From IMG/VR virus record IMGVR_UViG_3300050821_002540, positions 1-64,000 of that record: a stretch of DNA of 64,000 nt; one strand, written 5' to 3'. This DNA comes from a virus. The notes under the pieces are model-generated. The model was not told the origin of the DNA and did no database searches. It saw only the letters and a list, made by a program, of their open reading frames with translations. Positions 10,388-27,319 of the stretch are shown piece after piece. The position numbers and the translations under genes are program-made. Every line of letters starts with the position of its first letter. Within the stretch, counting starts at the first letter, position 1.

Positions 10388-11104
10388 ATGACCAGGCCAA
10401 CAACAGAAGAGTTCAGAATCGAGGTTCCGGGCAAGTTCAGGAAGGGGACAGCCTACCTTGACCTTGAGACAGTAAAGGTGTCAACTTACAATGCCTCAAG
10501 AAATAGGGGCCTGAATAGCGACTTCATCATGCAGAATGGCGAGTCGCTGAAGAACCGCTGGTCCATCGCAATGTACGGCGTTGCCCTGGATGGCGGCATC
10601 GTGCTCAGCGACAACGGCCTGAATGAGCCGGCAAACATTCAGGGTCTCGGTAACATACTGACTGGATGGAATGGTGGTGCTGCCTCTGGCGGTTTCATGT
10701 CCGGGCCAATCAATGAGGTGGCGTACGCAGCGACTCGCGAGTTTGACGAGATGGTTGCCAAGGGGCGCTTTACCAATGCCCGCCGTGCTCATGAGCTAGA
10801 GCCATTCTTCCCGGCTGTTCCTGGGGCTGACAAGGTAGCATGGCGTAACCTTGGCGGCAAGATTCCTGATCACATAAGCAGGTACCGCAGCCTTGATACT
10901 CGTAGCGCTATGGTACCGCACCACATTTCAAGAGGCAGTTACGAGCTTGTAACGGTCCACCTGCTCCGTGATGTTGTCCAGCTCATTATGTGGGATGGAA
11001 TGCCAGACTGGAAATGCTGGGGATGGTGTGAGCGTGTAATGAATGATTTCGAGTTCGCAGAGAAGCAGGTCTTCGGTGATGAACAGGAGCGAAATGGGAA
11101 TTAG
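10388..11104 (+). CDS. Possible RNase H-fold (DxE) exonuclease-like protein
   Basis: AYLDLET N-terminal motif and C-terminal HLLRDV. Confidence 0.5.
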   Translation: MTRPTTEEFRIEVPGKFRKGTAYLDLETVKVSTYNASRNRGLNSDFIMQNGESLKNRWSIAMYGVALDGGIVLSDNGLNEPANIQGLGNILTGWNGGAASGGFMSGPINEVAYAATREFDEMVAKGRFTNARRAHELEPFFPAVPGADKVAWRNLGGKIPDHISRYRSLDTRSAMVPHHISRGSYELVTVHLLRDVVQLIMWDGMPDWKCWGWCERVMNDFEFAEKQVFGDEQERNGN

Positions 11105-11219
11105 GCCAGGAGCAGAAGAGACCAAGGACGGCAAGAAAGGTGAGAACAGCCCAGGTACCAAGCCGAAGGACCTGCCCCAGGTTCCACAGCCAAAGGGCAA
11201 GTTACGGGCGGAAAAATAA
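11094..11219 (+). CDS. Small basic peptide; in-frame TTA at 11202, four codons before TAA
   Basis: AGGAG RBS; manual translation. Confidence 0.4.
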   Translation: MGIRPGAEETKDGKKGENSPGTKPKDLPQVPQPKGKLRAEK

Positions 11220-11231
11220 CTCGGGCAATGC

Positions 11232-11260
11232 TAGCTTTGCGCCCGCGTACGCGGTAGGCT
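11232..11260 (+). promoter_or_regulatory. Promoter TAGCTT-N17-TAGGCT
   Basis: Near-identical to the 6388 copy. Confidence 0.75.
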
Positions 11261-11300
11261 AGGCGTAGGCCGCCTAGCGGCGGCCAGTCAGGAGGCGAAA

Positions 11301-11543
11301 ATGAGCGACCACACCAGCGTCATAGTGTCGGTACTGCCCGACTGTGACTTCACTCACGAGAAGCCGGTCAAGGCAAAGTACGACGGCAAGACCAAGATGG
11401 GGCCGTGGGCGAACATGTGCCAGTCCCACTTCGACCAGAACGGCATCGGCCTGGGTCTCGGCCGGGGCCAGAAGCTGATCATCAAGGACAAGGACAGCGA
11501 CGATGGCGCCAGGGCTGAGGAACTGGACGGCACTAACCCGTAG
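11301..11543 (+). CDS. Small phage protein (CDF...YDGKTKMGPWANMC..H...GLGLGRGQ)
   Basis: GGAGGCGA RBS; motif typical of small phage proteins. Confidence 0.75.
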   Translation: MSDHTSVIVSVLPDCDFTHEKPVKAKYDGKTKMGPWANMCQSHFDQNGIGLGLGRGQKLIIKDKDSDDGARAEELDGTNP

Positions 11544-11613
11544 CTGGTAGCTGCCCGACAGGCTGGGACTCCCCGCCCAGCCTGTCGGGGAACGTCCAGT
11601 ACAAGGAGGAAAG

Positions 11614-11820
11614 ATGCCACCCACCGGAATCTCGATTGCCATGAAGTTCTTCGGCAAGCGCACCATGCCTGACGGCAAGGAGCAGCGACTGTCCGAGTTC
11701 AAGGAGGAATGGGACGGACTGCTGGTGGACCACGTCCCCGGCACGCCGGTCCGGGATGAGCACCGGGTGGTGCAGCACGCGATCATTGCGGGCATCGAGG
11801 ATGGCAGCTTCACCTACTGA
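11614..11820 (+). CDS. Small phage protein (KFFG...LSEFKEEW)
   Basis: AAGGAGG RBS. Confidence 0.7.
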   Translation: MPPTGISIAMKFFGKRTMPDGKEQRLSEFKEEWDGLLVDHVPGTPVRDEHRVVQHAIIAGIEDGSFTY

Positions 11821-11895
11821 CCTGGCACGCGTGGTGGCCAGCCTCCTGTGAGGCGAAGGGCGCAGGTAGTGACGCCTGTGCCTGTCACGTTAAAG

Positions 11896-11968
11896 CAGAG
11901 GGTCGTATGAGGCAAGTACGGGTGGGCTGATCCCCCGCCAGGTGTGGGTTCGAATCCCACCCCTCTCA
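11896..11968 (+). tRNA. Degenerate tRNA-like gene, anticodon GAT (Ile)
   Basis: T arm GTGGG-TTCGAAT-CCCAC; D stem GTAT/GTAC; anticodon loop CTGATCC; acceptor AGAGGG/CCCTCT with a 1-72 mismatch and non-canonical C37. Confidence 0.5.
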
Positions 11969-11982
11969 CGAAAGGAGCAGTC

Positions 11983-12255
11983 ATGAGCAAGCCACAGGTA
12001 GTAATTGTCCGCAAGGACAAGAAGATCAGGCACAAGGTGCTGCACGCAGCAGCGTTCGCCGTAACCGGCGGGGCAAGCGGCATCGTCACGGCGGCCGAGG
12101 CAGCCAGTCACGCGCAGTACAATGCCAGGACTCGGCAGCTCCAGGAGCAGTCCAGTCCCCGTCCGGCCCAGGTTAGCAAGGCAAAGGCAGTAGTTGGCCT
12201 TGTCTGCCTCAGCATCATTGTGCTGTGCATCATCATCGCAATCGCGGTGGGCTGA
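11983..12255 (+). CDS. Small membrane protein
   Basis: AAAGGAG RBS; hydrophobic C-terminus. Confidence 0.65.
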   Translation: MSKPQVVIVRKDKKIRHKVLHAAAFAVTGGASGIVTAAEAASHAQYNARTRQLQEQSSPRPAQVSKAKAVVGLVCLSIIVLCIIIAIAVG

Positions 12256-12497
12256 TGCCTGCGATTCCACTAGTTATCTACCAGCTGGTGGAAGCTAGAA
12301 TCGCCTTGAAGTTCGAGATCAAGCACGGTCACGGGCCGACAAGAGCAGTCAACTCCAAGAGCATAATCCCATGGCTGTACAAGTACTACATTACCGAGGT
12401 GTGTCAGGCACGGTACAGCCAGGAGCACAAGATCAAGGCGTACAATGACCTTAACAAGTATATGACAGATCACGGGATGGATGATAGGCCACTATGA
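12255..12497 (+). CDS. Hypothetical protein
   Basis: TGATG coupling. Confidence 0.6.
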   Translation: MPAIPLVIYQLVEARIALKFEIKHGHGPTRAVNSKSIIPWLYKYYITEVCQARYSQEHKIKAYNDLNKYMTDHGMDDRPL

Positions 12498-12679
12498 CCG
12501 AGGGCAGGGGAACAGGCTACCAGGAACTGTACTACGAGATCATAGCACTAGTCAATGATGGCGTGCTTGGCAATGAAAGCCCGCCAACTCCAAATTACTG
12601 GCACTGGCCAATTCGTGAGCCGGAAAGGCTCCCGGAGAAGTTTCAGAAGTGGATACCACTAGGGGAGGTGCGATGGTAG
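12494..12679 (+). CDS. Hypothetical protein
   Basis: ATGA coupling. Confidence 0.55.
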   Translation: MTEGRGTGYQELYYEIIALVNDGVLGNESPPTPNYWHWPIREPERLPEKFQKWIPLGEVRW

Positions 12680-12770
12680 TGTCACTAGCAATAATTGGTA
12701 CTTTTCTCGTCGGCGTTGCTTTTGGCGCATTCATTGCAGTAATAGCAATCATGAATGCGGACAAGCGGCC

Positions 12771-13163
12771 ATGAGCTGGGATGTCACTCTGTACCAGGTA
12801 CACAAGATCACTAACTGTCCACACTGTGGTCTTCCACTTCCGGTTCCGCGCGAGGAAGAGGAAGAGGTAAACTGGTGGAACTACACACATAACACCAGCC
12901 CAATGATCTATGAAGCCCTGAAGCAGGAAGGCTTCGAGCTTCCTGAGGGCAAGAACTGGTGGCAACATCTTGACGGTATGAACGGTCATGCTGGCGTGGC
13001 ATACCTCAGTATTATCATCGGGCAGCTTGAGCTTAACCCACACCATTACAGACTCATGAACCCAGATAATGGCTGGGGTGACTATGACTCACTACTCGCC
13101 ACTCTCTGTTCAATGCGTGACGAGCCAGTCAATAAAGATTCCAGATGGCATGTGAGTGGGTGA
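12771..13163 (+). CDS. Phage protein (NYTHNTSPM...MNPDNGWGDY)
   Basis: Motif typical of phage hypothetical proteins. Confidence 0.7.
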   Translation: MSWDVTLYQVHKITNCPHCGLPLPVPREEEEEVNWWNYTHNTSPMIYEALKQEGFELPEGKNWWQHLDGMNGHAGVAYLSIIIGQLELNPHHYRLMNPDNGWGDYDSLLATLCSMRDEPVNKDSRWHVSG

Positions 13164-13166
13164 ATA

Positions 13167-13376
13167 ATGTACTGGCAGGTAAGGGCGAGCTTTGCCAATA
13201 GTGGCGGCATCATGACGTTTGGCCTGGAGGCAGACAATCGCATCGGGGCCGAGCTGCTAGCATTCGACAGGATGCCACCTGGCGTCTGTGTGCTTGACGT
13301 GACGGCGATAGATGCGACGAAACTCAGAGTAGCAAAAGTAGATAATGGCGACTCTGACCCGGTAGGCTTAGCGTAG
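13167..13376 (+). CDS. Hypothetical protein; in-frame TTA at 13368, one codon before TAG
   Basis: 69-aa ORF in an operon. Confidence 0.5.
   Translation: MYWQVRASFANSGGIMTFGLEADNRIGAELLAFDRMPPGVCVLDVTAIDATKLRVAKVDNGDSDPVGLA
13339..13368 (+). promoter_or_regulatory. Promoter TAGATA-N18-TAGGCT
   Basis: Variant consensus with a downstream GGAGGCGAG RBS. Confidence 0.55.
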
Positions 13377-13407
13377 CGTCGCGAACGCGGCGAAAGCAGG
13401 AGGCGAG

Positions 13408-13707
13408 ATGGGATTTATGTACCTTCACCTGAAGTCGGATGACCAGGGGAAGATTCACGCAACGGTACAGCCCGATGGCACGCTACCGTTTGTCACTCTA
13501 GGGTCGGAAAACACCCGTTGGTCTGGGCGGCCGTTCGCTGTCTTCCAGATCGAGAGCTTTCAAGGCCTGACGTCAATCGATACCAGGGACCTGGAGCTTG
13601 AGGTCATCAACAGGCTCGGGGAAGATGGCCTGCGCTCACGGCTGGCCAGCGAGCTTTCAACGAATGACCTGCTCGGGATGCTTCGTGACCGCATCCCTCC
13701 CGCGTAG
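13408..13707 (+). CDS. Hypothetical protein
   Basis: GGAGGCGAG RBS. Confidence 0.65.
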   Translation: MGFMYLHLKSDDQGKIHATVQPDGTLPFVTLGSENTRWSGRPFAVFQIESFQGLTSIDTRDLELEVINRLGEDGLRSRLASELSTNDLLGMLRDRIPPA

Positions 13708-13715
13708 GAGGCGAA

Positions 13716-14687
13716 ATGGACATCGACAGCGTACTGCGGAAAGTGCACGGTCTGATCGCAAAGGCTGAGCATCCGAGTACGCCACCCAAAGAGGCGGCTG
13801 AGGCTCAGCGTATGGCTGACGCCCTCATGTACAAGTACAAGGTTAACCGGGTCCAGGCTGACAAGGCGGTCCCTGTTGCCCAGCGGATGAAAGCGGACAA
13901 GGTCGAGATTCCGCTTGTTGAAGACCCATCTCTTGTCGGGTATATGGCAGCACTAGCCAGGTCCGTTGCCAGGCACTGCGACTGTCGTATCCGCGAGTAT
14001 TCAACCTTCCGCGCGGACGGCTGGCATTCCAGGATCTACGGGTACCAGTCTGACCTTAGTTATTACCAGATCCTCTATGCCGAGCTTCGCCTGCAGATGG
14101 TAGGGGCACTCCGTCCCAAGTATGATCCGGCGAAGTCCATCGACTTGAATGCCTACCTCATGCACAATGCCGGCATGAACTGGTTCGACATGGCCCAGAT
14201 GGAGGGCTGGAGGCAGGTTCCGCCGGAATTTGGCGAGCCAAAGGTCATGTACATCAATGACCACACTGGCCAGCGTCAAAAGTGGTCTGATGCCGTAGGT
14301 AAGTTCAAGGACGGGTACAAGCGCGAGATTGAGCTACGTGGCGAGCCTTGGATGCAGATCCCGCCTGGCGGTATGAACACGTTCAGGGTCAATGCTGCCA
14401 ATGGCTATGTTGTCCGCATAGAACAACGTCTCGCCAGGATTCGTGAGGGCCGGGAGGTAGGCACCACTATTGCCCTTCTCAATGACGCGGTTGATGCCCT
14501 GTTCAAGGAAGATAATCCTGAGCTATACAAGCCCATCGAGTCATCAGCACCGAAAGGCAGGCGCACTCGCGCCCCAAAGGTCAGGCATATTCCGTACAGC
14601 GCACAGGGCTATGAGTCTGGCGTGCGCCAGGCCAATGCCGCAGCCCTTGACCCATCCCCGTCGCACACCCCCAGGAAGGAGCTGTGA
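13716..14687 (+). CDS. DUF2786-domain protein
   Basis: N-terminal LRKVHGLIAKAE..TPPKEAAEAQRMADALMYKY and C-terminal YESGVRQA pattern. Confidence 0.8.
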   Translation: MDIDSVLRKVHGLIAKAEHPSTPPKEAAEAQRMADALMYKYKVNRVQADKAVPVAQRMKADKVEIPLVEDPSLVGYMAALARSVARHCDCRIREYSTFRADGWHSRIYGYQSDLSYYQILYAELRLQMVGALRPKYDPAKSIDLNAYLMHNAGMNWFDMAQMEGWRQVPPEFGEPKVMYINDHTGQRQKWSDAVGKFKDGYKREIELRGEPWMQIPPGGMNTFRVNAANGYVVRIEQRLARIREGREVGTTIALLNDAVDALFKEDNPELYKPIESSAPKGRRTRAPKVRHIPYSAQGYESGVRQANAAALDPSPSHTPRKEL

Positions 14688-14881
14688 TGGACCCTATCAA
14701 GGCAGCTATCGCAGCCAAGATCCAGACGTACCTGACGGATGATGTCAGTTACAAGTTTCCTCACCTTCCCATCGAGAAGATTGAGTTCAGTGCTGTCGAT
14801 AGCCTGAACACCCAGGTCCGCGTTGTCACCGTGGGCCAGGGAATCCGCTACTTCACGGTGCAGTTGCGGGAGAACCTCTAG
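14684..14881 (+). CDS. Small hypothetical protein
   Basis: AGGAG RBS; coupled. Confidence 0.6.
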   Translation: MMDPIKAAIAAKIQTYLTDDVSYKFPHLPIEKIEFSAVDSLNTQVRVVTVGQGIRYFTVQLRENL

Positions 14882-14919
14882 CCATCGTAGTGCCACAACA
14901 ACAACCAGAAGGGTCAGCC

Positions 14920-15570
14920 ATGACTGACGACACCTCCACAACCACCATCAACAGCGACGAGGCCGGCAGCGGCCCGCTCGACCTGTCCAGGCCGGTCAGC
15001 CGTGACCGGTACATGAACACCATCACGGGCCTGTACCAGTTCTTCGAGGGCGAGCTCAAGCCAAGGAATTCCTGGTGCAACGAGCGGTTCCGCTACTTCG
15101 AGGAGCTCATTCCAGAGCTGGTCGTTGACCGGAGCAACCGGCACTACACCGCCGAGCTGGACTTCACCAGTGTGCCCGAGGATGCCGACTACGTGGCCCG
15201 GCTGCGTGACACCAGGGGCAAGTTGCTCTGGTACGCCAGCTCCACAATCATCAGCCTATCTCAGACCAACGAGGCACTCCAGGCGGCCGGAATGCCTGGG
15301 TACAAGGCGGAGAATTCCGGAACCCGCATGTCCCTCGAACTCGACAACATCAGGATCACCGTCGCAGCCAGTACCTCGAACGAGGCAAGGGTGTGGATTC
15401 AGGACCACCTTACCGACTTCCTCACGCGCATGATCGATGGGAAGGGCCCAATGGACACCGACCTGTACGTCCCTGGCTCCATCACCTTCGGCGATCCCGA
15501 ATACATCCACACGGCTAGCCTGCCGTCTGTTGACGTCAAGGACACGATCCGTCCCGGCTTCATCGGCTGA
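14920..15570 (+). CDS. Hypothetical protein
   Basis: Long ORF with strong GC3 codon bias. Confidence 0.7.
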   Translation: MTDDTSTTTINSDEAGSGPLDLSRPVSRDRYMNTITGLYQFFEGELKPRNSWCNERFRYFEELIPELVVDRSNRHYTAELDFTSVPEDADYVARLRDTRGKLLWYASSTIISLSQTNEALQAAGMPGYKAENSGTRMSLELDNIRITVAASTSNEARVWIQDHLTDFLTRMIDGKGPMDTDLYVPGSITFGDPEYIHTASLPSVDVKDTIRPGFIG

Positions 15571-15583
15571 CCCCCGGCCCCTG

Positions 15584-15629
15584 AGCGTCACGTCTGGCTG
15601 GTACTCGCCTCCCGGCCAGGCGTGGCGCT
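15584..15629 (+). ncRNA. Long hairpin with anti-RBS loop ACTCGCCTCC
   Basis: Stem AGCGTCACGTCTGGCTGG/CCGGCCAGGCGTGGCGCT with G-U pairs; the 10-mer matches the 3993 copy. Confidence 0.45.
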
Positions 15630-15653
15630 GAAGGACCGACAAGAAAGGAAAAC

Positions 15654-15974
15654 ATGAAGTTCTCACCACGCAACAAGGGCCTTATTGGTGGCCTACTGGC
15701 CGGAGCAGCTCTTACTGCAACGCTCCTAACATCCTGTGGAAATGGAACACCGCAGCTCGATGACCTTCAGAACGTCCCGCCATCCTACCCCAACTACGTC
15801 GCCAACCTCATCAATGTCAGCGGCTTCCCGAACGTTACGATGCTCTGCTACGACGGCGCAGGCTTCGCGACAACCACACGCGACGCGGCGGGTGCTGTAA
15901 CCCTGGTGCCTGAGTGGAGTGCCTTCTGCGAGAAGCAGATCGGGAAGCAGGCAACTCAGGGAGGCCAGCCCTAA
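15654..15974 (+). CDS. Lipoprotein
   Basis: Basic N-terminus, hydrophobic stretch, lipobox LTSC. Confidence 0.75.
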   Translation: MKFSPRNKGLIGGLLAGAALTATLLTSCGNGTPQLDDLQNVPPSYPNYVANLINVSGFPNVTMLCYDGAGFATTTRDAAGAVTLVPEWSAFCEKQIGKQATQGGQP

Positions 15975-15993
15975 AACTCAGCTTTGCAAACCC

Positions 15994-16022
15994 TAGACTT
16001 CAGGCGCTTGCGCCGGTAGACT
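15994..16022 (+). promoter_or_regulatory. Promoter TAGACT-N17-TAGACT
   Basis: Repeated consensus. Confidence 0.7.
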
Positions 16023-16102
16023 AGGGGTAGCGCCCCGGCCGGGGGAATGATAGACTCCTGAAAAGTGAGGAACCCTGGCCGGGGCCAGTGCTAGGAGGCG
16101 AA

Positions 16103-16564
16103 ATGAAGTGTGGTAGCTGCAGGGACAGCCACAAGACTGTCGATGAGGTAAGAGACTGCTACAAGCAGAAGAACTTCGTGCCGCTCACGACTGTGCACGA
16201 TGGCAAGAACGGCCAGTATGAGCTGCTCCAGAAGCTCCTGGCTGAGCGCGACATGGCTCCGCTCCCTCCGTACGATCACGTCGCGAACACAATAAGCAAG
16301 AGCGACGCGGGTGAGGCAATCGCTCTCCTCATCGACAACGTGCCCAAGTCCGACGGCAAGTGCGATGACGACTGGGAGGGTGAGTTATGTCTGAGGGCAC
16401 TCTCAGGGAAAGGTACCTGGCCAGCCAGACAAAATACAACCGCAGCTACAAAGGGGCGGCTCGGTACAAGCGGTATGAGGCAAAGCATCCCGAGCGTGCT
16501 CAGGCATGGAGCGAGCTCATGCAGATCAAGGCGAGGCGGCGGTTATGCTTTATGTCGCATTTGA
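16103..16564 (+). CDS. Hypothetical protein (CGSC..H..VDEVRDC); likely real end at TTA 16385-16387
   Basis: GGAGGCGA RBS; sequence after TTA overlaps the next gene out of frame. Confidence 0.65.
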   Translation: MKCGSCRDSHKTVDEVRDCYKQKNFVPLTTVHDGKNGQYELLQKLLAERDMAPLPPYDHVANTISKSDAGEAIALLIDNVPKSDGKCDDDWEGELCLRALSGKGTWPARQNTTAATKGRLGTSGMRQSIPSVLRHGASSCRSRRGGGYALCRI

Positions 16565-16575
16565 ATGCGTCCTGA
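16387..16575 (+). CDS. Small basic protein (YNRSYKG...RYEAKHPER); likely real end at TTA 16543-16545
   Basis: GGAGGG RBS; its ATG overlaps the upstream TTA. Confidence 0.6.
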   Translation: MSEGTLRERYLASQTKYNRSYKGAARYKRYEAKHPERAQAWSELMQIKARRRLCFMSHLNAS

Positions 16576-16682
16576 TCATTATGACGGCGAATGAGCTTTG
16601 TGCGCCCTCATACATGGCCGAGTACACTGCAGCCAAGTTCGGTGTTGCAATGATACTCATCATGATCAGGGAGATGCAATGA
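16545..16682 (+). CDS. Small membrane peptide (MLYVAFECVLII...)
   Basis: ATG overlaps the upstream TTA; TGA overlaps the next ATG. Confidence 0.5.
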   Translation: MLYVAFECVLIIMTANELCAPSYMAEYTAAKFGVAMILIMIREMQ

Positions 16683-16906
16683 CAGTCGATGAAGCCATTG
16701 AGGAAATTACTCGTGCATCAGTAATCTGTACCGATGTAGACCTATGGCGTAGTGAGCTTGAAACTATCCTCAAGGCCGTCCGCTCGCGCGCAGTTCTCGA
16801 TGCACAGGCAAGCATGGTTGCCGCATTTACCTGTCCGGAACATCACGGCAGGCACGAAATTCCTACCGATCAGGTAGGGAATATCCAAGGACCCGTTTCA
16901 CCTTGA
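16679..16906 (+). CDS. Hypothetical protein
   Basis: ATGA coupling; GGGAG RBS. Confidence 0.6.
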   Translation: MTVDEAIEEITRASVICTDVDLWRSELETILKAVRSRAVLDAQASMVAAFTCPEHHGRHEIPTDQVGNIQGPVSP

Positions 16907-16916
16907 AGGGAATGCC

Positions 16917-17762
16917 ATGGAAACCACTCAGACAGTCCTGCTCAGCCATCTCCACCCGAACCCAGCCAACCCCCGCGTGGAAGCTGGGGATGTAACTGAT
17001 CTTGCCCTTTCAATCAGGGAACAGGGCATAGTACATGACATCCTTGTCCGTCCCTCTCCTGAATTTGGAGTGGGCCACTTCGTAATTGAGGATGGATTCC
17101 GGCGCTGGGTGGCGGCCGAGGGTAACGCGAGGATGGGGCTAGGTCCTGAGACAGTTCAGGTACGCATCCGGTCGCTGAAGCCAGGCGAGAATTATGCCGT
17201 GCGCGAGGTTGTTACATCACTCGTAACAACAATCCATCGTACTGACCTCAGGGCAATGGAGAAGGCACACGCATTCGAGGCCCTGATGAGGGAGACCGGC
17301 AAGAACCAGTCGGAAGTTGCCAGGATGATTGGCGTGAATTCCAGTACGGTAGGTCGGTACCTTTCACTTCTGGAGCTAGCGCCACAGGCACAGAAACGAG
17401 TGTCCGATGGAACACTCAGCGTAGAGGACGCAATAGATGCGGTTATTAAGCATCGAGCAAAGGCAAGGAAGGACAAGGGACAGGCTGCAGTTGACCCTGG
17501 CTGGGAGCCACTCTACCTCGCGAAGACGCACCCTCTTGCAAAGAAGGCTCGAACAATGTGCGATGCCAGGGAGCATAATAATCGCCGTCGCCTAGATGGC
17601 GTAGCCTGCGGGCAGTGCTTCGAGACTGTTATACGTCAGGACCAGAGCACAGTAGACAGGATGGAGTACAATGAGGCTTTCAAGAATGCCGGACTCAGCG
17701 TCCCATTCACCGCTCCAATCTTCCTGACCGGCGAGGATGCCAGCAAGAATGGACAGCCATGA
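16917..17762 (+). CDS. ParB/Srx-domain protein with HTH
   Basis: LHPNPANPR, LALSIREQGI, IEDGFRRWVAA; HTH NQSEVARMIGVNSSTVGRYL. Confidence 0.85.
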   Translation: METTQTVLLSHLHPNPANPRVEAGDVTDLALSIREQGIVHDILVRPSPEFGVGHFVIEDGFRRWVAAEGNARMGLGPETVQVRIRSLKPGENYAVREVVTSLVTTIHRTDLRAMEKAHAFEALMRETGKNQSEVARMIGVNSSTVGRYLSLLELAPQAQKRVSDGTLSVEDAIDAVIKHRAKARKDKGQAAVDPGWEPLYLAKTHPLAKKARTMCDAREHNNRRRLDGVACGQCFETVIRQDQSTVDRMEYNEAFKNAGLSVPFTAPIFLTGEDASKNGQP

Positions 17763-17889
17763 GGCCGCACAGGTTTAATCCTGACCAGCGCGTCTCGACT
17801 GGTGAGATTTGCGTGTGCGGAGGGTCAAGAAACTACCGGGCACATCAGCCTTGGTGGTGGCTCATTCTGAACAGGAAGAAGTGGTGGAG

Positions 17890-18696
17890 ATGAAGGACAA
17901 CGTATACATCGTGACGCGGGACCGGCTCGACAACCTGGAGAAGATCATACCACGCTGGCTGGAACAGTACTTCTATGTCACACTGGTAATCGAACATTCC
18001 GAGTACATGAAGCACGATGCCCTCATCCGTGGCATGGGCGTTTATGATGATATTGCAATAATCAGCCCAAAGGCGGAAAATAAGGGCATCGGTCATGCCC
18101 GGAAGTATGCAGTTACAAATGCCTGCCTTCGCGGGCTGCGGTCATTTATTATGTCTGATGATGATCTCCGTCCGCACAAGGACTCGGTGATGGCCGACCT
18201 GGTAAAAGAAGCTGAAAAGCCAAATGTCCTTGGCATCGGGGCGACAAGGCCGCTACATGACAGGTTCTCGCACAACATGACGAGGGACCGGGATGATGTC
18301 ATTATATGTCCTGGTGGCTGGGGCATGCAGGTCTTTGCGCTGAACGTCAGGAACACAGTCGATGTCGGCAACTTCAACCCTCGCCTTGACTGCTGGGGCG
18401 AGGATCACGAGCTGATGCGTGACGGGATTGTTTGTGGCTTCCCCTGGCTCGTACACTGTGGAGTGAAGTGTGAGCCTATCGGGGTGCGCTATGATCCTGG
18501 TGGCCTACACTCGTACATCGGCAAGGGTAACAGGTCAGAGCGCGAGTTGGAGTGTCGTAAGCTCATCTATGAGCGCTGGGGGAATTACGTAAGCAAGCCT
18601 GACAAGAGGCCGCGTACAGCATGGGCCAGAATGATGGATGAATACATTCCTAACTGGCGTAGCAAGTCAGCAATCCACGGCGGTGAATGGCAGTAG
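17890..18696 (+). CDS. GT-A glycosyltransferase, TAGT/GREB1/base-J glucosyltransferase-like (DNA base modification)
   Basis: VYIVTRDR, GIGHARKYA, MSDDD, GEDHEL, PGGL and C-terminal ERWG motifs. Confidence 0.7.
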   Translation: MKDNVYIVTRDRLDNLEKIIPRWLEQYFYVTLVIEHSEYMKHDALIRGMGVYDDIAIISPKAENKGIGHARKYAVTNACLRGLRSFIMSDDDLRPHKDSVMADLVKEAEKPNVLGIGATRPLHDRFSHNMTRDRDDVIICPGGWGMQVFALNVRNTVDVGNFNPRLDCWGEDHELMRDGIVCGFPWLVHCGVKCEPIGVRYDPGGLHSYIGKGNRSERELECRKLIYERWGNYVSKPDKRPRTAWARMMDEYIPNWRSKSAIHGGEWQ

Positions 18697-18722
18697 ACTC
18701 CAGCGATCCTGTAAGGTATACT
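18694..18722 (+). promoter_or_regulatory. Promoter TAGACT-N17-TATACT
   Basis: Repeated consensus with a GGAGGCGAG RBS downstream. Confidence 0.7.
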
Positions 18723-18761
18723 AGTTCTAGGGCCGTCCCCGGCCGCAGTAGGAGGCGAGAA

Positions 18762-18977
18762 ATGCCACAGTTCATTGTTACGGTTAAGCTCCATCGACTT
18801 CCTGAACACGATCCAAGGAGCAAGAAGACGGGGCCGTGCCCGGTAAGCGGCGGCAACTGCACTGACGTTACCGGGGAGCACCACAGCTACCTGCAGGAAG
18901 CCGTCACGTCTGATGATGCCGCAAGAATTGCTCGGGAGCAATGGACTCACGTCACCCGAGTCGAGCAGGTGTCATGA
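18762..18977 (+). CDS. Small Cys/His protein
   Basis: GGAGGCGAG RBS. Confidence 0.65.
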   Translation: MPQFIVTVKLHRLPEHDPRSKKTGPCPVSGGNCTDVTGEHHSYLQEAVTSDDAARIAREQWTHVTRVEQVS

Positions 18978-19183
18978 TGCCAACGTACGAATATCATTAC
19001 AATACGTACGAGGAAGCAATGAAGGCTGTCGATGTGGCGGTAGAGGAAACGCTCAGTGACAATCCACACCTAAAGGCACAGGAAGACGATATCTTCCATG
19101 ATGTAGTACAGGCCATAATGCCTGACTGCACTCCAGAGGTGGAGGCCGAGATATCAAGGGTGACAGGAGTTCCCCGGCTGTGA
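18974..19183 (+). CDS. Small acidic protein
   Basis: ATGA coupling. Confidence 0.6.
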   Translation: MMPTYEYHYNTYEEAMKAVDVAVEETLSDNPHLKAQEDDIFHDVVQAIMPDCTPEVEAEISRVTGVPRL

Positions 19184-19455
19184 AGATTGAAGTGTGGGTT
19201 AGTCCTGAAGGCGTACACCACCAGTATCAGGTCGGGTATCCGTGCTTCACGTGCGGTAATTCACATAGTGACCCGTCTGTTGAATTCATAGACCAGGTAG
19301 CCGAGGCCATCCTATCCGAGACAGAGGGGGATCTGGACAAGGCAATAATTATAGCCGACATGGTCAAGTATGCGCTCCAGCGTAGGAGCATACAGCAGCA
19401 CGTATGGCCATCTATACCTATACCACTGACACACGAATACAGAATAGATTGGTGA
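19180..19455 (+). CDS. Hypothetical protein
   Basis: GTGA coupling. Confidence 0.55.
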   Translation: MKIEVWVSPEGVHHQYQVGYPCFTCGNSHSDPSVEFIDQVAEAILSETEGDLDKAIIIADMVKYALQRRSIQQHVWPSIPIPLTHEYRIDW

Positions 19456-19616
19456 AGGGGCCGTAATGAGGAATGGTGCCAGGGGATGGAAGGTCGATGA
19501 GACCATCACTGAGATCCCTGAAGAGGATAAGGGCAATGTTATCAGCCGGGATGACCCGGAGCCATCACGCAAGGATGACCCCACCTACTACACAGGCCCG
19601 GCAGGCGGTGACTGAT

Positions 19617-19817
19617 GTGACACTCAAGGAAACAAAGCTAGAGATTGAGAATACAATAAGGGTGAGGATTAAGGACAGGATGCCAGTTGCAGACCTTGTT
19701 CTGCCACCCAACCCCATCAGCATCATAGTGGTAGGCAAGAGCGCCGACAACCTCCAGGCCCGCATAGTCTACCGGGACTGTGCCCCCTACTACATCAATG
19801 TGAGCAAGATACGTTGA
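19617..19817 (+). CDS. Hypothetical protein
   Basis: 3' part of ORF 19473-19817, coupled to the helicase. Confidence 0.45.
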   Translation: MTLKETKLEIENTIRVRIKDRMPVADLVLPPNPISIIVVGKSADNLQARIVYRDCAPYYINVSKIR

Positions 19818-21742
19818 CAGTACAGATAAGAATTGACGGCAAGAGGATTCTTGCTATTGTTCCGTACAGGGGCGGCCGAGGGTCCATACAGGCAAAGCAG
19901 GTGCCTGGCGTTAAGGCAAAGTGGGACAAAGAAAAGTTTGTCGGATGGACCTACCCGCTCAGCCTAAATTCTTGCTATGCCCTCCGTCGTGTCTTCGGTG
20001 AGGAACTTGAGATCTCAGATGGCCTTGCTAAATGGGCACGTGCCGAGATCATCAAGAATAATACGCTTGAGGATTTCAGGGAAGAGGCGATTGCCAGCCA
20101 GACATTTGACCAGCTTGCGGAAGAGGCTCCGCAACTGTACCTTGCGATGGCGTCGCGGGAGTATCAGCTAGCAGGGACAGCATTCCTGGTAGCGGGTGGT
20201 CAAACGATACTCGGTGATGAGCCGGGACTAGGCAAGACACTGCAGGCACTAGGTGCTATCATCCAGAATGACGCAAAGACAATCCTCGTGGTGTGTCCTC
20301 GTACCGCAACACGTACAGTATGGGAACGCGAGACTGGTCGCTGGACTCCTAGCATAGCGACGTTTGTTGCTCAGGGAACACATGCCCAGCGTGAGGCTGT
20401 CATGAGCCGATTCTCAGACCATTCTGTCCTGATACCGGGGACACGAAAGATGCTCATAGTCAATACTGAGATGATTAGGGCAAAGAAGAGGGAAGTATGC
20501 CCGGAAGGGCTTGACCCCAAGTGGTGTGATGACAGGCCATTCGAGGCACGCGGCGATCACAGGCACCACTATGAGGTAGAGCCTGAATGGCCATTCCTCA
20601 GCGAGCAGGCATGGGATGCAATAATACTTGACGAGTCCCACAACGCACTCGCGTCCACCGCCAACGTACAGAGCAAGAGGATTACCCTTGCCAGGCGCGG
20701 AGCCGTCAGGATCAGGAAGCGTCTCAGGAAGGGTGGACTAGCAGTAGCAGTCAGTGGGACGCCATTCCGGTCTGACCTAAGTAAGTCCTGGGGGACACTT
20801 AACTGGCTGAGGCCTGATGTGTTTAAGGGGTACTGGAGTTTTGCCGAACATCACTTCGGTGTTACATACAATGGCATCGCAAAAGTTGTTGGCAGGATCG
20901 AGGATGGCAGGCAGATTGTCGAGCCACTAGACCAGGAGGAATTTGACCGTGCGCTACGTCCATACTACCTCGCGCGGAGAAAAAGTGACGTGGTCCCTGA
21001 CCTACCACCAATCATATATGCGGGCACTCCACCAGAAGGATTCCCCGATGGGCCATGTTACGTACGGCTTGATATGGAATCCAAGCAAGCTAAGGCGTAT
21101 CGCCAGATGGAGGCTAACTCGGAGGCTGACCTCAATGGTGGTAGAGTACTTGCTAACGGAGTCCTTGCCGAGATCACTCGACTGAGGCAGTTTGCAAGCA
21201 GCTACGCACGGATAGCCGGGCCGGGTCACGTCATACCGGACACCCCAAGCAACAAGATCGACTGGATCTCTGACTTCATGTATGAGCGTGAGGGTGGAGA
21301 TGGCAAAGTTGTTATTGCCAGTAGCTTCACACAGCTAGTCGAGATGACAGCGGCTATGCTCCGTAAGGACAAGTGGGAAGTCCTCACGCTTACCGGGGCT
21401 ACCAGCGACAAGAACAGAGCCATCCTTCAGCGAAGGTTCAATGACCAGGATGATCCTCTCCGTGTAGTTGCCATAAATACCAAGGCTGGCGGTGAGGCAA
21501 TAACGCTCGACGCTGCCGATGACATGATAGTCATTGACATGCCCTGGACCAGCGATGAGTTCAAGCAGCTAGAGAACCGCATACACCGCGTCTCCCGCAT
21601 ACATCAGGTAACAGTCTACCGCCTGATAAGCAATGACACCATCGAGGAATGGATCGCTGACATGTCAGAGGAACAGCGAGCAATCCTTGAGGCTGCTAGC
21701 CCACGCAAGCTCAGCGAGATGATCAGAGAGGCACGAAGATGA
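19814..21742 (+). CDS. SNF2-family (SF2) DNA helicase
   Basis: GDEPGLGKT, ILDESH, SGTP, GGEAITL and QLENRIHR motifs. Confidence 0.92.
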   Translation: MTVQIRIDGKRILAIVPYRGGRGSIQAKQVPGVKAKWDKEKFVGWTYPLSLNSCYALRRVFGEELEISDGLAKWARAEIIKNNTLEDFREEAIASQTFDQLAEEAPQLYLAMASREYQLAGTAFLVAGGQTILGDEPGLGKTLQALGAIIQNDAKTILVVCPRTATRTVWERETGRWTPSIATFVAQGTHAQREAVMSRFSDHSVLIPGTRKMLIVNTEMIRAKKREVCPEGLDPKWCDDRPFEARGDHRHHYEVEPEWPFLSEQAWDAIILDESHNALASTANVQSKRITLARRGAVRIRKRLRKGGLAVAVSGTPFRSDLSKSWGTLNWLRPDVFKGYWSFAEHHFGVTYNGIAKVVGRIEDGRQIVEPLDQEEFDRALRPYYLARRKSDVVPDLPPIIYAGTPPEGFPDGPCYVRLDMESKQAKAYRQMEANSEADLNGGRVLANGVLAEITRLRQFASSYARIAGPGHVIPDTPSNKIDWISDFMYEREGGDGKVVIASSFTQLVEMTAAMLRKDKWEVLTLTGATSDKNRAILQRRFNDQDDPLRVVAINTKAGGEAITLDAADDMIVIDMPWTSDEFKQLENRIHRVSRIHQVTVYRLISNDTIEEWIADMSEEQRAILEAASPRKLSEMIREARR

Positions 21743-21954
21743 CCGATATGCGTAATGTCAGGAATGCTATCGCACGTGTGCGGTCAAACCTCAGGAACGT
21801 CGAGCATGAAGCCGTTCTTGGCAACAGTAATGGTGCGTTTGCCTCTGCCCAGGATGCCTGGCAGAATGCCTTTGACCTCATGCAGCTATTCGCCCTCACG
21901 GATGATGAGCTGGCAAAGGCAAAACCTGGAGCCAATGACCCGGAGACAAATTAA
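21739..21954 (+). CDS. Hypothetical protein
   Basis: ATGA coupling. Confidence 0.55.
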   Translation: MTDMRNVRNAIARVRSNLRNVEHEAVLGNSNGAFASAQDAWQNAFDLMQLFALTDDELAKAKPGANDPETN

Positions 21955-22322
21955 TGTCAGATAGTGACGATAAGTTCCGCGAGTGGTTTGGTGCCAATGA
22001 GGGGAAACTCAGGCTTCCATGGAACACAGACTCACTCCGTGCTGCCTGGGAGGCCGGCAGGAAGTCGAGGGATAAGGAGATTGAATTTCTCCGAACGGTC
22101 ACAGAACAGGGATGGGAATGACCTGGGAGACTGCTAATCCATGGGCCATTGTCGATATCGAGGCTCGGCCGCAGGTAGTTGTTACCAGGTATGAGAGCAA
22201 GGCAATGGCAACATGGTACCTCGGCTACCTACTTGCGCACGGGGCTGCGTCTACGCAGGCGAAACTCAGGCGCGGCGGGTACGGCATCGAGGAAAATTCT
22301 CGGAAGATGATGGCTGAAAAGG

Positions 22323-22351
22323 TAGCGTCAGCTCGCCGGATGGACTATACT
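22323..22351 (+). promoter_or_regulatory. Promoter TAGCGT-N17-TATACT
   Basis: Consensus spacing; lies inside ORF 22112 upstream of ATG 22409. Confidence 0.6.
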
Positions 22352-22408
22352 AAGGGTAACGCTAAGCCACGAACCACCAACGTAGAAAACAAGGGAAAGG
22401 TCACAACC

Positions 22409-22861
22409 ATGCCACCTCGCGGACGTAAGGGTGCTGCTGTTCCGGTCGAGCCAGAGGAAGTGCTTGAGGAAGAGAATGGTGCCGGCTTGTTCGATCATCA
22501 CCTGACCAAGGACCTCAGCCCTACGATGTCAACCTACGCGGACTGGTTCCACGCCAACGTAGCGGACATCGACCAGCTAGGCAAGGATGACCCGGCTCGA
22601 CTGCTTGCCCTAGGCAGCACGCTGTACCCGCACTTCCAGAAGTCCCCGGAGAACCAGGCTGCCCGTGCAGAGCGAAAGGCTGCGCGTGCCGTCGCTGTCG
22701 AGCCTGAGCCCGAGCCTGAGCCTGAGCCTGTTGCTCAGCCTGCGCGCCGGGGCCGTCCCTCCACCAAGGCTGCGGCTGCGGCACCGGCTGCTGCTCCTGC
22801 AGCCAAGGCCCCCGCTCGTCGGCGCGGTGCCGCCCCGGCTGCGGCCGAGGCACCCTACTAG
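22409..22861 (+). CDS. Ala/Pro/Arg-rich probable nucleic-acid-binding protein; paralog of gene 1-372
   Basis: Own promoter and AAGGGAAAGG RBS; in frame with an upstream ORF from 22118. Confidence 0.75.
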   Translation: MPPRGRKGAAVPVEPEEVLEEENGAGLFDHHLTKDLSPTMSTYADWFHANVADIDQLGKDDPARLLALGSTLYPHFQKSPENQAARAERKAARAVAVEPEPEPEPEPVAQPARRGRPSTKAAAAAPAAAPAAKAPARRRGAAPAAAEAPY

Positions 22862-22866
22862 AAAGC

Positions 22867-23171
22867 TCCTGTCCGGGGCGAAGTGACCGACCGGCTTGCC
22901 GCGTAGCCCGCAGGGGCATACGGTCTTCCCCGGACAGGACCAATGGTTGGAGCACCTGGATCACTGATCAGCTCCAGGTCCACGGAGGGCAGCATGCGAG
23001 AGCCGTGCTTCCGGCAGGGGTCAAACCCCAAGCCCTCCACGCAGGCCGTGGGATCCCAAGGGTGTAGCGAGAACGGCTCTGGGTATTGGCGGTTCGATTC
23101 CGCCCCGCTACACCCACCTAAACGTCCAGCCCCTGGTGGCAACCATGGTCGGGTGCCGGGGGCTGGACCCA
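22867..23171 (+). ncRNA. Array of five stem-loop or tRNA-fragment-like RNAs, each ending in CCA
   Basis: 7-13 bp closing stems; T-arm motifs GGCGG-TTCGATT-CCGCC and GGGG-TCAAA-CCCC. Confidence 0.55.
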
Positions 23172-23241
23172 GGGGCGTTGGTGTATGGGTAGCACGCTTA
23201 GGTTTGATCTAAGAGCACCAGGTTCGAGTCCTGCAGCCCCA
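23172..23241 (+). tRNA. tRNA-Gln(TTG)-like gene, imperfect
   Basis: D arm GTGT-ATGGGTA-GCAC; anticodon arm CTTAG-GTTTGAT-CTAAG; T loop TTCGAGT; only 5 acceptor pairs. Confidence 0.6.
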
Positions 23242-23262
23242 CGGCCAATAACTGGAGGAACA

Positions 23263-23535
23263 ATGATGACATGGGGCCGTACGTACTGGCCGATCTTCCT
23301 GGACATCTCCTCAATATGGGTGCTACTTGGCTTCGGAGTGCCCGAGGCAATAGCACTCATCAATCACAAGCTACATGTAGATGACACACTCTCCTACTAT
23401 GCCCGTACCGAGCTACATATCAGTGTAGCGACAGCGGCTACGGCGCACACACTTGCATGGTACCTCTCATTCATCGTGTGGATGTCATTCGTCATATTCA
23501 TCACAGCCCACATCTGGTTCGACCAGTTCGGATAA
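23263..23535 (+). CDS. Two-TM membrane protein
   Basis: GGAGG RBS; two hydrophobic segments. Confidence 0.7.
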   Translation: MMTWGRTYWPIFLDISSIWVLLGFGVPEAIALINHKLHVDDTLSYYARTELHISVATAATAHTLAWYLSFIVWMSFVIFITAHIWFDQFG

Positions 23536-23645
23536 TGAAAGAAACTCGCCCACAGGGACCACCGTGTGTGAGCGGTGCGGAAGAACGGCTAGCCAGGATG
23601 CGATCGGCCAGGCGTGCCTAACTCGCGGCACCATGAGGGAGACAA

Positions 23646-24626
23646 ATGACTGGACTGCCACTAGTAACTACAACGTCTCGCTCGACGTTCCGGCGCTGCC
23701 CACAGAAGTGGGTATGGCGATTTGAGGATGGCCTAACTCAAAAAGGTGAGACCGCTGATGCCCTGTGGTTTGGTACTGGAGTCCATGAAGCTCTTGCTAA
23801 GTGGTACCTGAGGGGTGCGCGACGCGGGCCGCGACCTGCTGATACATTTGACAACTGGTGCTCCAATGAGATGCGCGAGATTCGTGCATCCCGCGAGGAA
23901 TGGGAAGACCAGGCTAAGTATGAGGATGCTCTTGAACTTGGCATAGCTATGCTCGACAACTACATTCAAGAGTATGGTGCTGATGATAACTGGGACATAG
24001 TTGCGATCGAGCAGCCATTCAAGATTAGGGTGACCTGGCACGGTAAGCCGGTCGCCCTGTTCATGTCTACCTGGGATGGCGTCTACCGGGACAGGAAAGA
24101 TGGCAAGCTCTACCTCCTGGAACATAAGACAGCAAGCCAGATCACCCTCCCCTACCTTGCACTTGATGATCAGGCAGGAGTGTACCTGGCCGTTGCTGAA
24201 CAGTGGCTCAAGACCAAGAACATTATGAGGCAAAATGAGCACATCGCCGGAATCATGTACAACTTCCTCAGGAAGACAATGGGTGATGACCGGGATCGGA
24301 ATGAAGGTGGAGCCTACCTAAACAAAGATGGCTCGGTAAGCAAGAAGCAGCCGCCACCACCGTTTGTCCGGAACCTAGTTGAGCGTGGCCCCGGCGAGAG
24401 CAGGACTCAGATGGAGCGACTAGCCAATGAGGTAGCTGTCATGAATGCTGTCCGAGACGGTACCATCCCAGTAACTAAGAGCACCACCAAGGACTGCACA
24501 TGGTGCGAGTTCTTTTATGTATGCACTCTCCATGAGCGTGGCAGTACCACTGCCTTCAATGAGTACGTTCGTCACGGCTTCACAAAGAAAAATCCATTCG
24601 ACCGTTACCAGAAGAGCGCAGGATGA
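23646..24626 (+). CDS. Cas4-like PD-(D/E)XK exonuclease
   Basis: FRRCPQKW, FGTGVHEALA, WDGV...LEHKT, C-terminal CTWCEFFYVC. Confidence 0.88.
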   Translation: MTGLPLVTTTSRSTFRRCPQKWVWRFEDGLTQKGETADALWFGTGVHEALAKWYLRGARRGPRPADTFDNWCSNEMREIRASREEWEDQAKYEDALELGIAMLDNYIQEYGADDNWDIVAIEQPFKIRVTWHGKPVALFMSTWDGVYRDRKDGKLYLLEHKTASQITLPYLALDDQAGVYLAVAEQWLKTKNIMRQNEHIAGIMYNFLRKTMGDDRDRNEGGAYLNKDGSVSKKQPPPPFVRNLVERGPGESRTQMERLANEVAVMNAVRDGTIPVTKSTTKDCTWCEFFYVCTLHERGSTTAFNEYVRHGFTKKNPFDRYQKSAG

Positions 24627-24874
24627 ATGCTGACGAGTACGGAAACCCTGACTTTGAGCACCCTGAGCCACCCGCGCCGGGTCTCGGCCACAACCTCTAC
24701 CATCCAGTCCCGACCGACAAATGTATCTGTACCGACGGCCCTTGTATGCTTTTGTCTGAGGAACGTAAGGTACCGACACCTTGCTCTGAAACGCCAACTC
24801 AGGAAGACCTACTCTGTGACGAATGCAGGGATAGTGATGTAAGTGGCAAGAAACATTGTCATCCATGTATGTAA
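24623..24874 (+). CDS. Small Cys-rich protein
   Basis: ATGA coupling; many Cys. Confidence 0.55.
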   Translation: MNADEYGNPDFEHPEPPAPGLGHNLYHPVPTDKCICTDGPCMLLSEERKVPTPCSETPTQEDLLCDECRDSDVSGKKHCHPCM

Positions 24875-24892
24875 TATGAAGTGGAGTAAATA

Positions 24893-25729
24893 ATGCCACC
24901 AACACGCGGGGTACGAAAGCCACGACAGGCACGATCAGGCAATCAGGCCGAGAGCCCACTCGCCATAGATGCTGACGTTGTAGAAATCAAGATCGAGGAT
25001 ATTGCCAGCTTCAGGGAGAGCAAGAACATCTGCCTCTTTGGACCGTCGGGACACGGCAAGACGACCCTCGCGAGTGGCGCTCCAAGGTCAACATTCCTGA
25101 CAACAGAAAAGGGCCTGTCCTCAGCTCAGACCGCCGGGTCAAGGTCAGGTATTATGCGTGCCTATGACTGGGAGCATATAAAGGCCGGTCTAGACCTGGC
25201 TGACGAGAAGCTTGGCGAGGATGACTGGCTTATTGTAGACAGCGCCACAAAGATGCAGGTTCTCTACATGCGCTGGATCCTACGTATGCAGAACCAGGCT
25301 AACAGTAGCCGCAGTCTTGACATTCCTGCTCTCCAGGATCACCAGCAGTACCAGAATGGTTTTAAGCGCTTCATCGATCACATCATTGATGCCAAGTACA
25401 ACTCAATAGTCATCTTCGGAGAGATGGAGATCCCTGGTGAGGATGATGAGATGGAGCGCGTACCTCACATTGAGGGCGGCAAGACGTTCCAGGTATGCCG
25501 GTATGTCATAGGACAGTTTGACGTGGGCATCCGGTACTCCGTTAGCCGGAAGCTAAGCGGTCCAGGCGATACAAAGCGGATCGCCCTAACCCAGCCCACT
25601 GACCAGTACTGGGCCAAGGACCGATACAGTGCCCTCGGTGACTACCAGATAGTAGAGCCGGGTGAGTATGATGCCATGGCACAGTTCATCGAGATGATAT
25701 ATGAGTCACGAGGGGAGGTAGTCAAGTGA
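24893..25729 (+). CDS. AAA_24/Sak4-like RecA-fold ATPase (recombination)
   Basis: GPSGHGKTT, IVDSAT and AKDR; lies between the exonuclease and SSB. Confidence 0.85.
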   Translation: MPPTRGVRKPRQARSGNQAESPLAIDADVVEIKIEDIASFRESKNICLFGPSGHGKTTLASGAPRSTFLTTEKGLSSAQTAGSRSGIMRAYDWEHIKAGLDLADEKLGEDDWLIVDSATKMQVLYMRWILRMQNQANSSRSLDIPALQDHQQYQNGFKRFIDHIIDAKYNSIVIFGEMEIPGEDDEMERVPHIEGGKTFQVCRYVIGQFDVGIRYSVSRKLSGPGDTKRIALTQPTDQYWAKDRYSALGDYQIVEPGEYDAMAQFIEMIYESRGEVVK

Positions 25730-25892
25730 GGTATGACACGCTTATGCTGGCAATCGAACGTTTCCTTGACCGGAAGCAAGAACAGACCGGCGAGAAGTGC
25801 GAGAACCCAAAGTGCATGATATGTAATAGCACATATGCTAACCCGGCAGGGACAATGCACTGGTGGCCAGTAGGAAAGGTTAGGTCATACAT

Positions 25893-26105
25893 TTGACGCA
25901 CAGGTGTATGCTTGGATCGTGTGGATGGGCCAGTCCCGATGAGCCAGATCAGTTCTCGGGGTGTAGGGCAACCTGGCATATCTTCGAGGATCACCCAGAT
26001 GTTTGGCTCAGGACATTCGGTGACAGAAAGCCGGTGGACCCAGACCCACGCACCGATGAGGGCATGATGGCAATCAGGGTAAACATCATACTATCTGGAG
26101 GATAA
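25893..26105 (+). CDS. Small Cys/His protein
   Basis: C...C.W...WH...DHP; coupled. Confidence 0.5.
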   Translation: MTHRCMLGSCGWASPDEPDQFSGCRATWHIFEDHPDVWLRTFGDRKPVDPDPRTDEGMMAIRVNIILSGG

Positions 26106-26330
26106 GTGCCCCCTAGACGGCAGAAGCCCGAGTCCGGTAGGGTATCGATAGTCGATGCCGACACGATGCTCATGCAACAGTTTAGGCTCCACTGTCAGAA
26201 GCGCCACCCACAGATGAAGTTCTGGTCAATAGGCGAGCATATCGCAGACCACAGGCTTCATGATGACTCTCTTAACCATATCCACACCAAGGAAGCACCA
26301 ACAGAAGAGGAAGGCAGCACAGATGCCTAA
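26106..26330 (+). CDS. Small His-rich protein; paralog of 35590 gene
   Basis: DAD.M....F.LH...RH...H.RLH pattern shared with 35590-35808. Confidence 0.6.
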   Translation: MPPRRQKPESGRVSIVDADTMLMQQFRLHCQKRHPQMKFWSIGEHIADHRLHDDSLNHIHTKEAPTEEEGSTDA

Positions 26331-27147: not shown

Positions 27148-27319
27148 AACAGCCCTGGGGCCAGCTCATCAATGCCATCTTCGGTGAGTGTCTAGGCCAT
27201 ATCCAAGAAGCTGAGCAGGTCGGCCGCTGCGTCTACTGTAGACAATGCGGCCGACGGCTCTACCAGGGCACAAAAATGAACCCCATCGAGCTCTTCAATC
27301 TCAGGAAGGAATGGGGTAA

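Follow-up and report, generated by a model that had tools for sequence, protein, structure and literature searches.

Known Roles of UUA at Gene Ends and Gene Starts

The mitochondrial code of Thraustochytrium is NCBI table 23. UUA is a stop codon in labyrinthulean (Thraustochytrium) mitochondria, UUA and UCA are stops in peDinoflagellate plastids, and UUA and UUG are stops in the mitochondria of Marsupiomonadales and Pseudoscourfieldia (PMC12574857). The release factor of organelles with UUA stops is altered, either by substitution of Ser204 in RF2 or in the form of an altered mtRF1a (PMC12574857). The phage sequences described below resemble these organelles in the codon concerned and in the direction of the change (sense to stop), and also in that UUA lies at the stop positions of homologs, that none is internal, and that no cognate tRNA is found in the genome. 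They differ in that a phage clade is concerned, one in which TTA would close only 4–8% of genes and prefers an overlap with the next ATG.

In Streptomyces, the reading of UUA depends on the bldA tRNA, with UUA codons biased to gene starts; ribosomes are documented to pause at a UUA that lies 5–6 nt upstream of the adpA start; and in phage Hau3, UUA has been proposed both as a phage sensor and as a bypass trigger in the terminase (PMC10732093). Likenesses to the present case include the rarity of UUA, an actinophage-like setting, a position beside a start codon, and the stalling expected when the tRNA is scarce. In Streptomyces and Hau3, however, the UUA lies within a gene or a few nucleotides before a start, is read as leucine or bypassed, and splits one gene, whereas in the clade studied here it stands at gene ends only, aligned with the stops of relatives.

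Unassigned codons are also known at gene ends—that is, AGA and AGG in human mitochondria, AGA and AUA in Micrococcus luteus, and CGG in Mycoplasma capricolum—and share with the present case the principle that translation can in practice end at a sense codon for which no usable tRNA exists. The human mitochondrial case involves a −1 shift that brings UAG into the A site, whereas at the TTAs of this clade a shift to the −1 or the +1 frame yields no stop. Stop-codon-recoded phages read TAG or TGA as an amino acid and usually carry suppressor tRNAs or release factors; there, too, table 11 miscalls the genes of a phage lineage, but the change runs in the opposite direction (stop to sense), and in our material no release-factor domain (six genomes) and no suppressor tRNA was found. 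Finally, the overlaps of the UGAUG and UAAUG type that couple neighboring genes have an identical geometry, with the Shine-Dalgarno sequence within the end of the upstream gene, the difference being that the shared codon here is UUA, not a standard stop. Our literature search returned sense-to-stop code changes for organelles only, with no UUA terminator reported in a bacterium or phage.

The Phage Genome and Its Relatives

The DNA analyzed here (the window) is a stretch of 64,000 nucleotides, bases 1–64000 of IMG/VR virus record IMGVR_UViG_3300050821_002540 (73,693 bp; hereafter G000), the genome of an uncultured 73.7-kb soil phage with 97-bp terminal repeats. Its portal protein has >2,000 homologs with 60–83% identity, and an alignment of 30 of them, used as the query, yielded 67 related loci from IMG/VR and a few new ones from JGI metagenomes. 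In addition, the contigs of five larger relatives were taken whole and added to G000 and the 67 loci. The related loci have GC contents of 55–66% and the same codon usage as G000. A ParB relative (G001; 67% GC, 101 kb) was set aside as too distant and too GC-rich to inform.

When cultured phages were searched at the nucleotide level with G000, zero matches were obtained. At the protein level, the nearest cultured phage is Streptomyces phage Dagobah (portal 39.5%, capsid 46.5%), and DnaE of cluster-D mycobacteriophages gives a 49.5% match to G000. Dagobah was tried as a comparison and proved uninformative, since none of five hand-checked TTAs was in frame against the annotation and no TTATG is present. 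Pfam matches in G000 comprise Prim-Pol, DUF3631, DUF2786, and an Rv2525c-like hydrolase, and a ThyX gene at window positions 28475–29683 was also confirmed by Pfam.

The Three-Gene Stretch at 16093–16682

The first-pass annotation of this DNA had described two consecutive TTATG junctions, at 16385 and 16543, followed by an ATGA overlap, and had likened them to TGATG/TAATG overlaps elsewhere in the window (6843, 7727, 7960, 8497, and 12253); all of the coordinates check out, and all five of the cited overlaps are present in the gene list. The features of the stretch are as follows.

16093–16098, + strand: Shine-Dalgarno sequence AGGAGG of gene 1, read from the sequence, 4 nt before ATG16103
16103–16384, + strand: gene 1, 94 codons, ending ...DDDWEGE, a protein with a CxxC...C N-terminal domain; coding score 44.9–48.7
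16374–16379, + strand: Shine-Dalgarno sequence GGGAGG of gene 2, within the end of gene 1, 7 nt before ATG16387
16385–16387, + strand: in-frame TTA, putative end of gene 1, its A beginning ATG16387 (TTATG)
16387–16542, + strand: gene 2, 52 codons, ending ...KARRR, a basic, helical-looking protein with homologs in two related phage contigs (G004 and G003)
16388–16564, + strand: table-11 tail of gene 1, 58 codons, spanning all of gene 2 out of frame; negative coding score
16533–16536, + strand: Shine-Dalgarno sequence GAGG of gene 3, 8 nt before ATG16545
16543–16545, + strand: in-frame TTA, putative end of gene 2, its A beginning ATG16545 (TTATG)
16545–16682, + strand: gene 3, 45 codons, hydrophobic, with TGA at 16680–16682 in an ATGA overlap with the next gene's ATG16679

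Read with table 11, gene 1 reaches 16564 and encodes 153 aa, the last 59 residues being a tail of exactly the length given earlier for TTA read as leucine, and gene 2 reaches 16575 with a 10-residue tail. The coding score changes sharply at the first junction: upstream of 16385 the in-frame score is 18.7–19.3, and downstream, in the same frame, it falls to −1.9 (30 codons) or −11.4 (35 codons), with the frame of the ATG positive. Nothing aligns to the gene 1 tail in HMMER and tblastn comparisons with homologs and relatives. The tail is judged from these sequence comparisons not to be translated.

We favor, and consider probable, a reading in which the host does not decode UUA productively and translation of the upstream gene ends there, in most cases at a stop/start overlap. 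During infection, UUA would then not be read as leucine and would work as a terminator; gene 1 would end at 16385 and gene 2 at 16543; and, since the last A of each TTA is shared with the next ATG, the three small genes would be translationally coupled as at TGATG/TAATG overlaps. Gene 3 may alternatively start in frame at ATG16581; no homolog of it was found among the relatives.

Homologs of the two upstream genes bear on the focal sites to different degrees. For gene 1, those detected with HMMER are distant and align only to residues 1–87, one of them being a 90-aa protein that stands alone. When gene 1 homologs were placed on G000 with tblastn, the matches stopped at 16348–16360, short of 16385, and no gene 1 homolog has a canonical stop exactly at the position of 16385. 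Close relatives of gene 1 were found neither in IMG/VR nor in JGI metagenomes, and a word-index search returned the gene 1 protein alone. Most relatives carry an additional C-terminal domain that G000 is without; in the family members P0003–P0010 and L081 (219–294 aa), the C-terminal part is conserved (...TGNNDxDF...CxxCGxxLT...GIGPxC), and a search throughout G000 gave no copy of it. For gene 2, homologs with 57% identity in G004 and 44% in G003 end with TAG and TTATG, respectively, both four codons past the position in G000; the support from stop alignment is partial for this gene. Overall, the sequence support at the focal gene 1 and gene 2 sites is less direct than the clade-wide pattern described below.

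A sequencing or assembly error, in which TAA or TGA was misread as TTA, has a next to negligible probability. Elsewhere in G000, TAATG and TGATG appear without misreading, and dozens of independent assemblies have TTATG at a variety of genes. Furthermore, Logan contigs from two soil metagenome runs belonging to different studies cover 10800–30799 with zero letter differences, the focal region included, so that no alternative letter is seen at either site; the identity of contigs from two runs indicates that these TTAs are not assembly errors. None of the public runs listed as holders of this sequence is an RNA run.

A second alternative is recoding, in which a hungry UUA triggers a frameshift or short bypass and a single chain is made from genes 1, 2, and 3. 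UUA-triggered bypassing in phage Hau3 has experimental support (PMC10732093), and at the first junction a GAG at 16382 could serve as the take-off codon for a matching GAG at 16393 in the frame of gene 2, 8 nt on. The latter is the third codon of gene 2, and such a GAG pair is present only at the 16385 junction, probably by chance. Against recoding, the codon before TTA varies freely, the other junctions are without a slippery or matched landing codon, and in relatives an ordinary stop lies between the same two genes. The distance to the next stop in the +1 frame is not below the chance expectation (p = 0.83), and a −1 shift is also unsupported. In view of the lack of slippery sequences, of matched codons other than the GAG pair, and of near +1 stops, a frameshift or bypass is thus highly improbable.

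Exclusion of TTA From Gene Interiors

In the window, split-box codons with a final A (AAA, CAA, AGA, and TTA) and the TTR box as a whole are avoided: AAA is used 37 times vs. 352 for AAG, CAA 32 vs. 413 for CAG, and AGA 31 vs. 178 for AGG, and TTG is rare (25), leucine being carried by CTN. CTA, GTA, and ATA (140 for ATA) are freely used, A-ending four-fold codons being common.

The behavior of TTA in the clade was assessed by counting codons within tblastn matches of the portal, protease, major capsid, and terminase proteins of G000, in G000 and the 67 loci. Not one of the 93,066 homology-defined codons is an in-frame TTA, with 16–77 expected from the TTG count multiplied by the A/G ratio found in the remaining split boxes. 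Comparably rare codons do occur in the same set: TTG 291 times, AAA 176, CAA 242, and AGA 176. The same DNA contains 700 out-of-frame TTAs, and the counts by frame (0, 496, and 204) follow a pattern like those of TAA (0, 230, and 613), TAG (0, 390, and 363), and TGA. A stricter scan returned two apparent internal TTAs, both of which reflect, in antisense, TAA stops of genes on the opposite strand. TTA is kept out of gene interiors as fully as the three stop codons.

These counts bear directly on a third alternative, in which the code is standard and UUA is read as leucine by a very scarce, bldA-like tRNA. The codon would then have been purged from gene bodies, TTATG would be a programmed pause acting as a sensor of host physiology, and the tailed proteins would be made. 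The nearest cultured relatives are actinophages, and Streptomyces and Mycobacterium have a UUA-reading tRNA; the bldA dependence, the adpA pause site, and the sensor proposal for Hau3 are precedents for such a role (PMC10732093). Nevertheless, exclusion of TTA is absolute in 93,066 codons in which the other rare split-box codons are each present 176–291 times, and UUA in Streptomyces is biased to gene starts (PMC10732093), whereas here it is confined to gene ends. The internal, 5′-biased, leucine-read UUA of bldA-type genes was not observed, all TTAs being terminal. We regard decoding by a scarce tRNA as unlikely, though it is the strongest of the alternatives.

TTA at the Stop Positions of Homologs

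Whether homologs have TAA or TGA where a TTA is found had been put forward as a check on termination at UUA, and across the clade the answer is positive, with the terminase and the families ending ...RKARSRV[IV], ...FEWKVS[DE], and ...VWRQV as examples. The terminase ends ...YRSF[IV]A followed by TTA (as TTATG) in two loci (L021 and L067), and TGA, TAG, or TAA is found at the corresponding position in ~40 relatives, including G000. Among the new loci from JGI metagenomes, one in-frame TTA was found, again at the terminase C-terminus (...FRSV, then TTATG, in L142). The ending ...RKARSRV[IV] precedes TTA in L012 and L032 (33% mutual identity) and TGA or TAA in 15 relatives. A small membrane protein encoded before the portal gene has the C-terminus ...FEWKVS[DE]; the next codon is TAA in 7 cases, TGA in 7, TAG in 8, and TTA in 7, the G000 TTA at genome position 67735 being one of the last seven. 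Also just before the portal gene, ...VWRQV is followed by TTATG in L021 and L058, vs. ...VWRQI followed by TAATG in L067, and in the ...NLRGVR family TTA likewise lines up with the canonical stops of homologs.

TTA sits at the stop position in homolog alignments repeatedly and in independent lineages. The earlier proposal that UUA ends translation is therefore supported both by these stop-position alignments across the clade and by an exclusion from reading frames like that of stops. As judged from sequence comparison, TTA probably acts as a fourth stop signal in G000 and ~70 relatives, the focal TTAs being part of a clade-wide rule.

Preference for Stop/Start Overlaps

From G000, the 67 related loci, and the contigs of the five relatives, 41 non-redundant, confident in-frame TTAs were obtained, of which 21 (51%) overlap an ATG by one base; the corresponding share among 981 canonical stops is 13%. 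When NNATG junctions flanked by coding sequence were tallied, TTA (20) came third after TGA (53) and TAA (34), though it is the rarest codon, and TTATG makes up 18 of 110 non-redundant 1-nt stop/start overlaps. The excess of TTATG overlaps is far beyond chance. This preference suggests that UUA terminates slowly or weakly, which would be tolerable or of use chiefly where one and the same ribosome can restart on the overlapping AUG.

The tails that follow TTATG have a median of 18 codons, indistinguishable from virtual tails after TAATG/TGATG (Mann-Whitney p = 0.83). Since the tail lengths are at chance level, nothing selects for short tails. Between L060 and L076, 5 of the 18 tail residues differ, with no difference in the overlapped part of the downstream protein, and the tail in L065 holds another in-frame TTA. 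If a scarce tRNA read these codons as leucine, small proteins would be given tails of up to 58–77 codons, of chance length and unconserved, which argues against that reading.

The non-overlapping TTAs tend to be followed soon by a canonical stop, with a median distance of 13 codons vs. ~30 (p = 0.03). Together with the overlap bias, this means that TTA is not used as a stop independently of context, a dependence that favors leucine insertion by a scarce tRNA. The nearby stops would be explained if a stop arose by mutation within dispensable C-terminal residues; they would also be accounted for by a leucine codon that is hardly decodable and acceptable only at the extreme C-terminus.

Translation Machinery and the Host

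The tRNA scan of G000 returned two tRNAs only, none of them for TTA, AAA, or AGA.

11896–11969 of the window: tRNA-Ile(GAU)
23171–23242 of the window: tRNA-Gln(UUG), reading CAA, an avoided split-box codon

In the 67 loci and the contigs of the five relatives, the scan gave only a tRNA-Met and one unassigned call, with no TTA reader and no suppressor tRNA. Release-factor domains were searched for in G000 and the five relatives, three of which are 93–100% complete, and none was detected. Because neither a phage-encoded release factor nor a TTA-reading tRNA was found, the host machinery would have to do the work. Release of the nascent chain at UUA would then be effected by that machinery in one of two ways: by a release factor that accepts UUA, or by rescue or slow near-cognate release where the codon has no charged tRNA.

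The host is probably actinobacterial, as may reasonably be inferred because the closest cultured phages are Streptomyces and Mycobacterium phages. A search of the ESM Atlas with the lysin gave no usable taxon for the host. A search of genome contigs returned one match, a contig of 6.5 kb from a fragmented soil MAG of the Planctomycetota (G007), which was rejected as a host link owing to probable mis-binning. This MAG encodes ordinary RF1 (PxT) and RF2 (SPF), and TTA is present in its long ORFs. One of its contigs (C776; L119, L122, L126, and L127) carries an array of ~18 tRNAs and looks viral or foreign, which casts further doubt on the bin.

More specifically, a soil host, perhaps an actinomycete, could have a four-stop code, in which tRNA-Leu(UAA) has been lost and a release factor has changed to accept UUA. 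We put this forward tentatively, as a possible but rather doubtful form of the preferred reading. If it is true, the clade is the visible trace of the first sense-to-stop reassignment in free-living bacteria. In either case, the finding makes the routes from sense codon to terminator testable, namely tRNA loss with slow near-cognate release vs. a release-factor change, and the TTATG bias hints at a tie between weak termination and re-initiation.

Other In-Frame TTAs of G000 and Consequences for Annotation

If UUA terminates, standard gene callers mis-annotate 4–8% of the genes in a large soil-phage clade, adding false C-terminal tails and hiding small downstream genes. Code-inference tools that assign only amino acids would miss a sense-to-stop change. 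Gene calling in G000 that treats TTA as a stop gives 130 predicted genes, 11 of them ending in TTA. A codon-usage scan of all in-frame TTAs with coding upstream gave none after which coding continues in the same frame. The coding signal shifts to the frame of the ATG at five TTATG sites, the two focal ones and 37719 on the + strand and 67553 and 67735 on the − strand, and five further TTAs (11202, 13368, 27494, 39466, and 62622) lie 0–6 codons ahead of a canonical stop. The TTATG at 918 was grouped with the five TTATG sites on its form alone, its ATG frame scoring −1.8. The sites in the window outside the focal stretch are as follows.

916–918, − strand: TTA (in TTATG), putative end of a 136-codon gene at 919–1326; tail 21 codons
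11202–11204, + strand: in-frame TTA 4 codons ahead of TAA
13368–13370, + strand: in-frame TTA, then GCG TAG
27494–27496, + strand: in-frame TTA, then CGG TGA
37719–37721, + strand: TTATG joining the end of an NlpC/P60 peptidase gene (...GYARV) to a 38-aa CxxCxGxG gene
39466–39468, + strand: in-frame TTA with TAG immediately next
62620–62622, − strand: TTA, putative end of a 91-codon gene at 62623–62895; canonical stop 6 codons on

Homologs of the gene at 62623–62895 end 2–5 codons from its TTA. The Pfam NLPC_P60 match would end close to 37719, and the table-11 tail there is 47 codons long; a search of IMG/VR for relatives of this NlpC/P60 gene gave none. The 38-aa CxxCxGxG gene that follows (37721–37837) resembles a DnaJ-type zinc finger, with a Pfam E-value of 0.003, below the cut-off. 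At the 67553 site, three TTATG in the same frame occur within 23 nt (L003 5533–5555, genome 67531–67553, − strand; TTATGGTTATGGAGTACTTTATG), after a gene ending ...HASRAGL.
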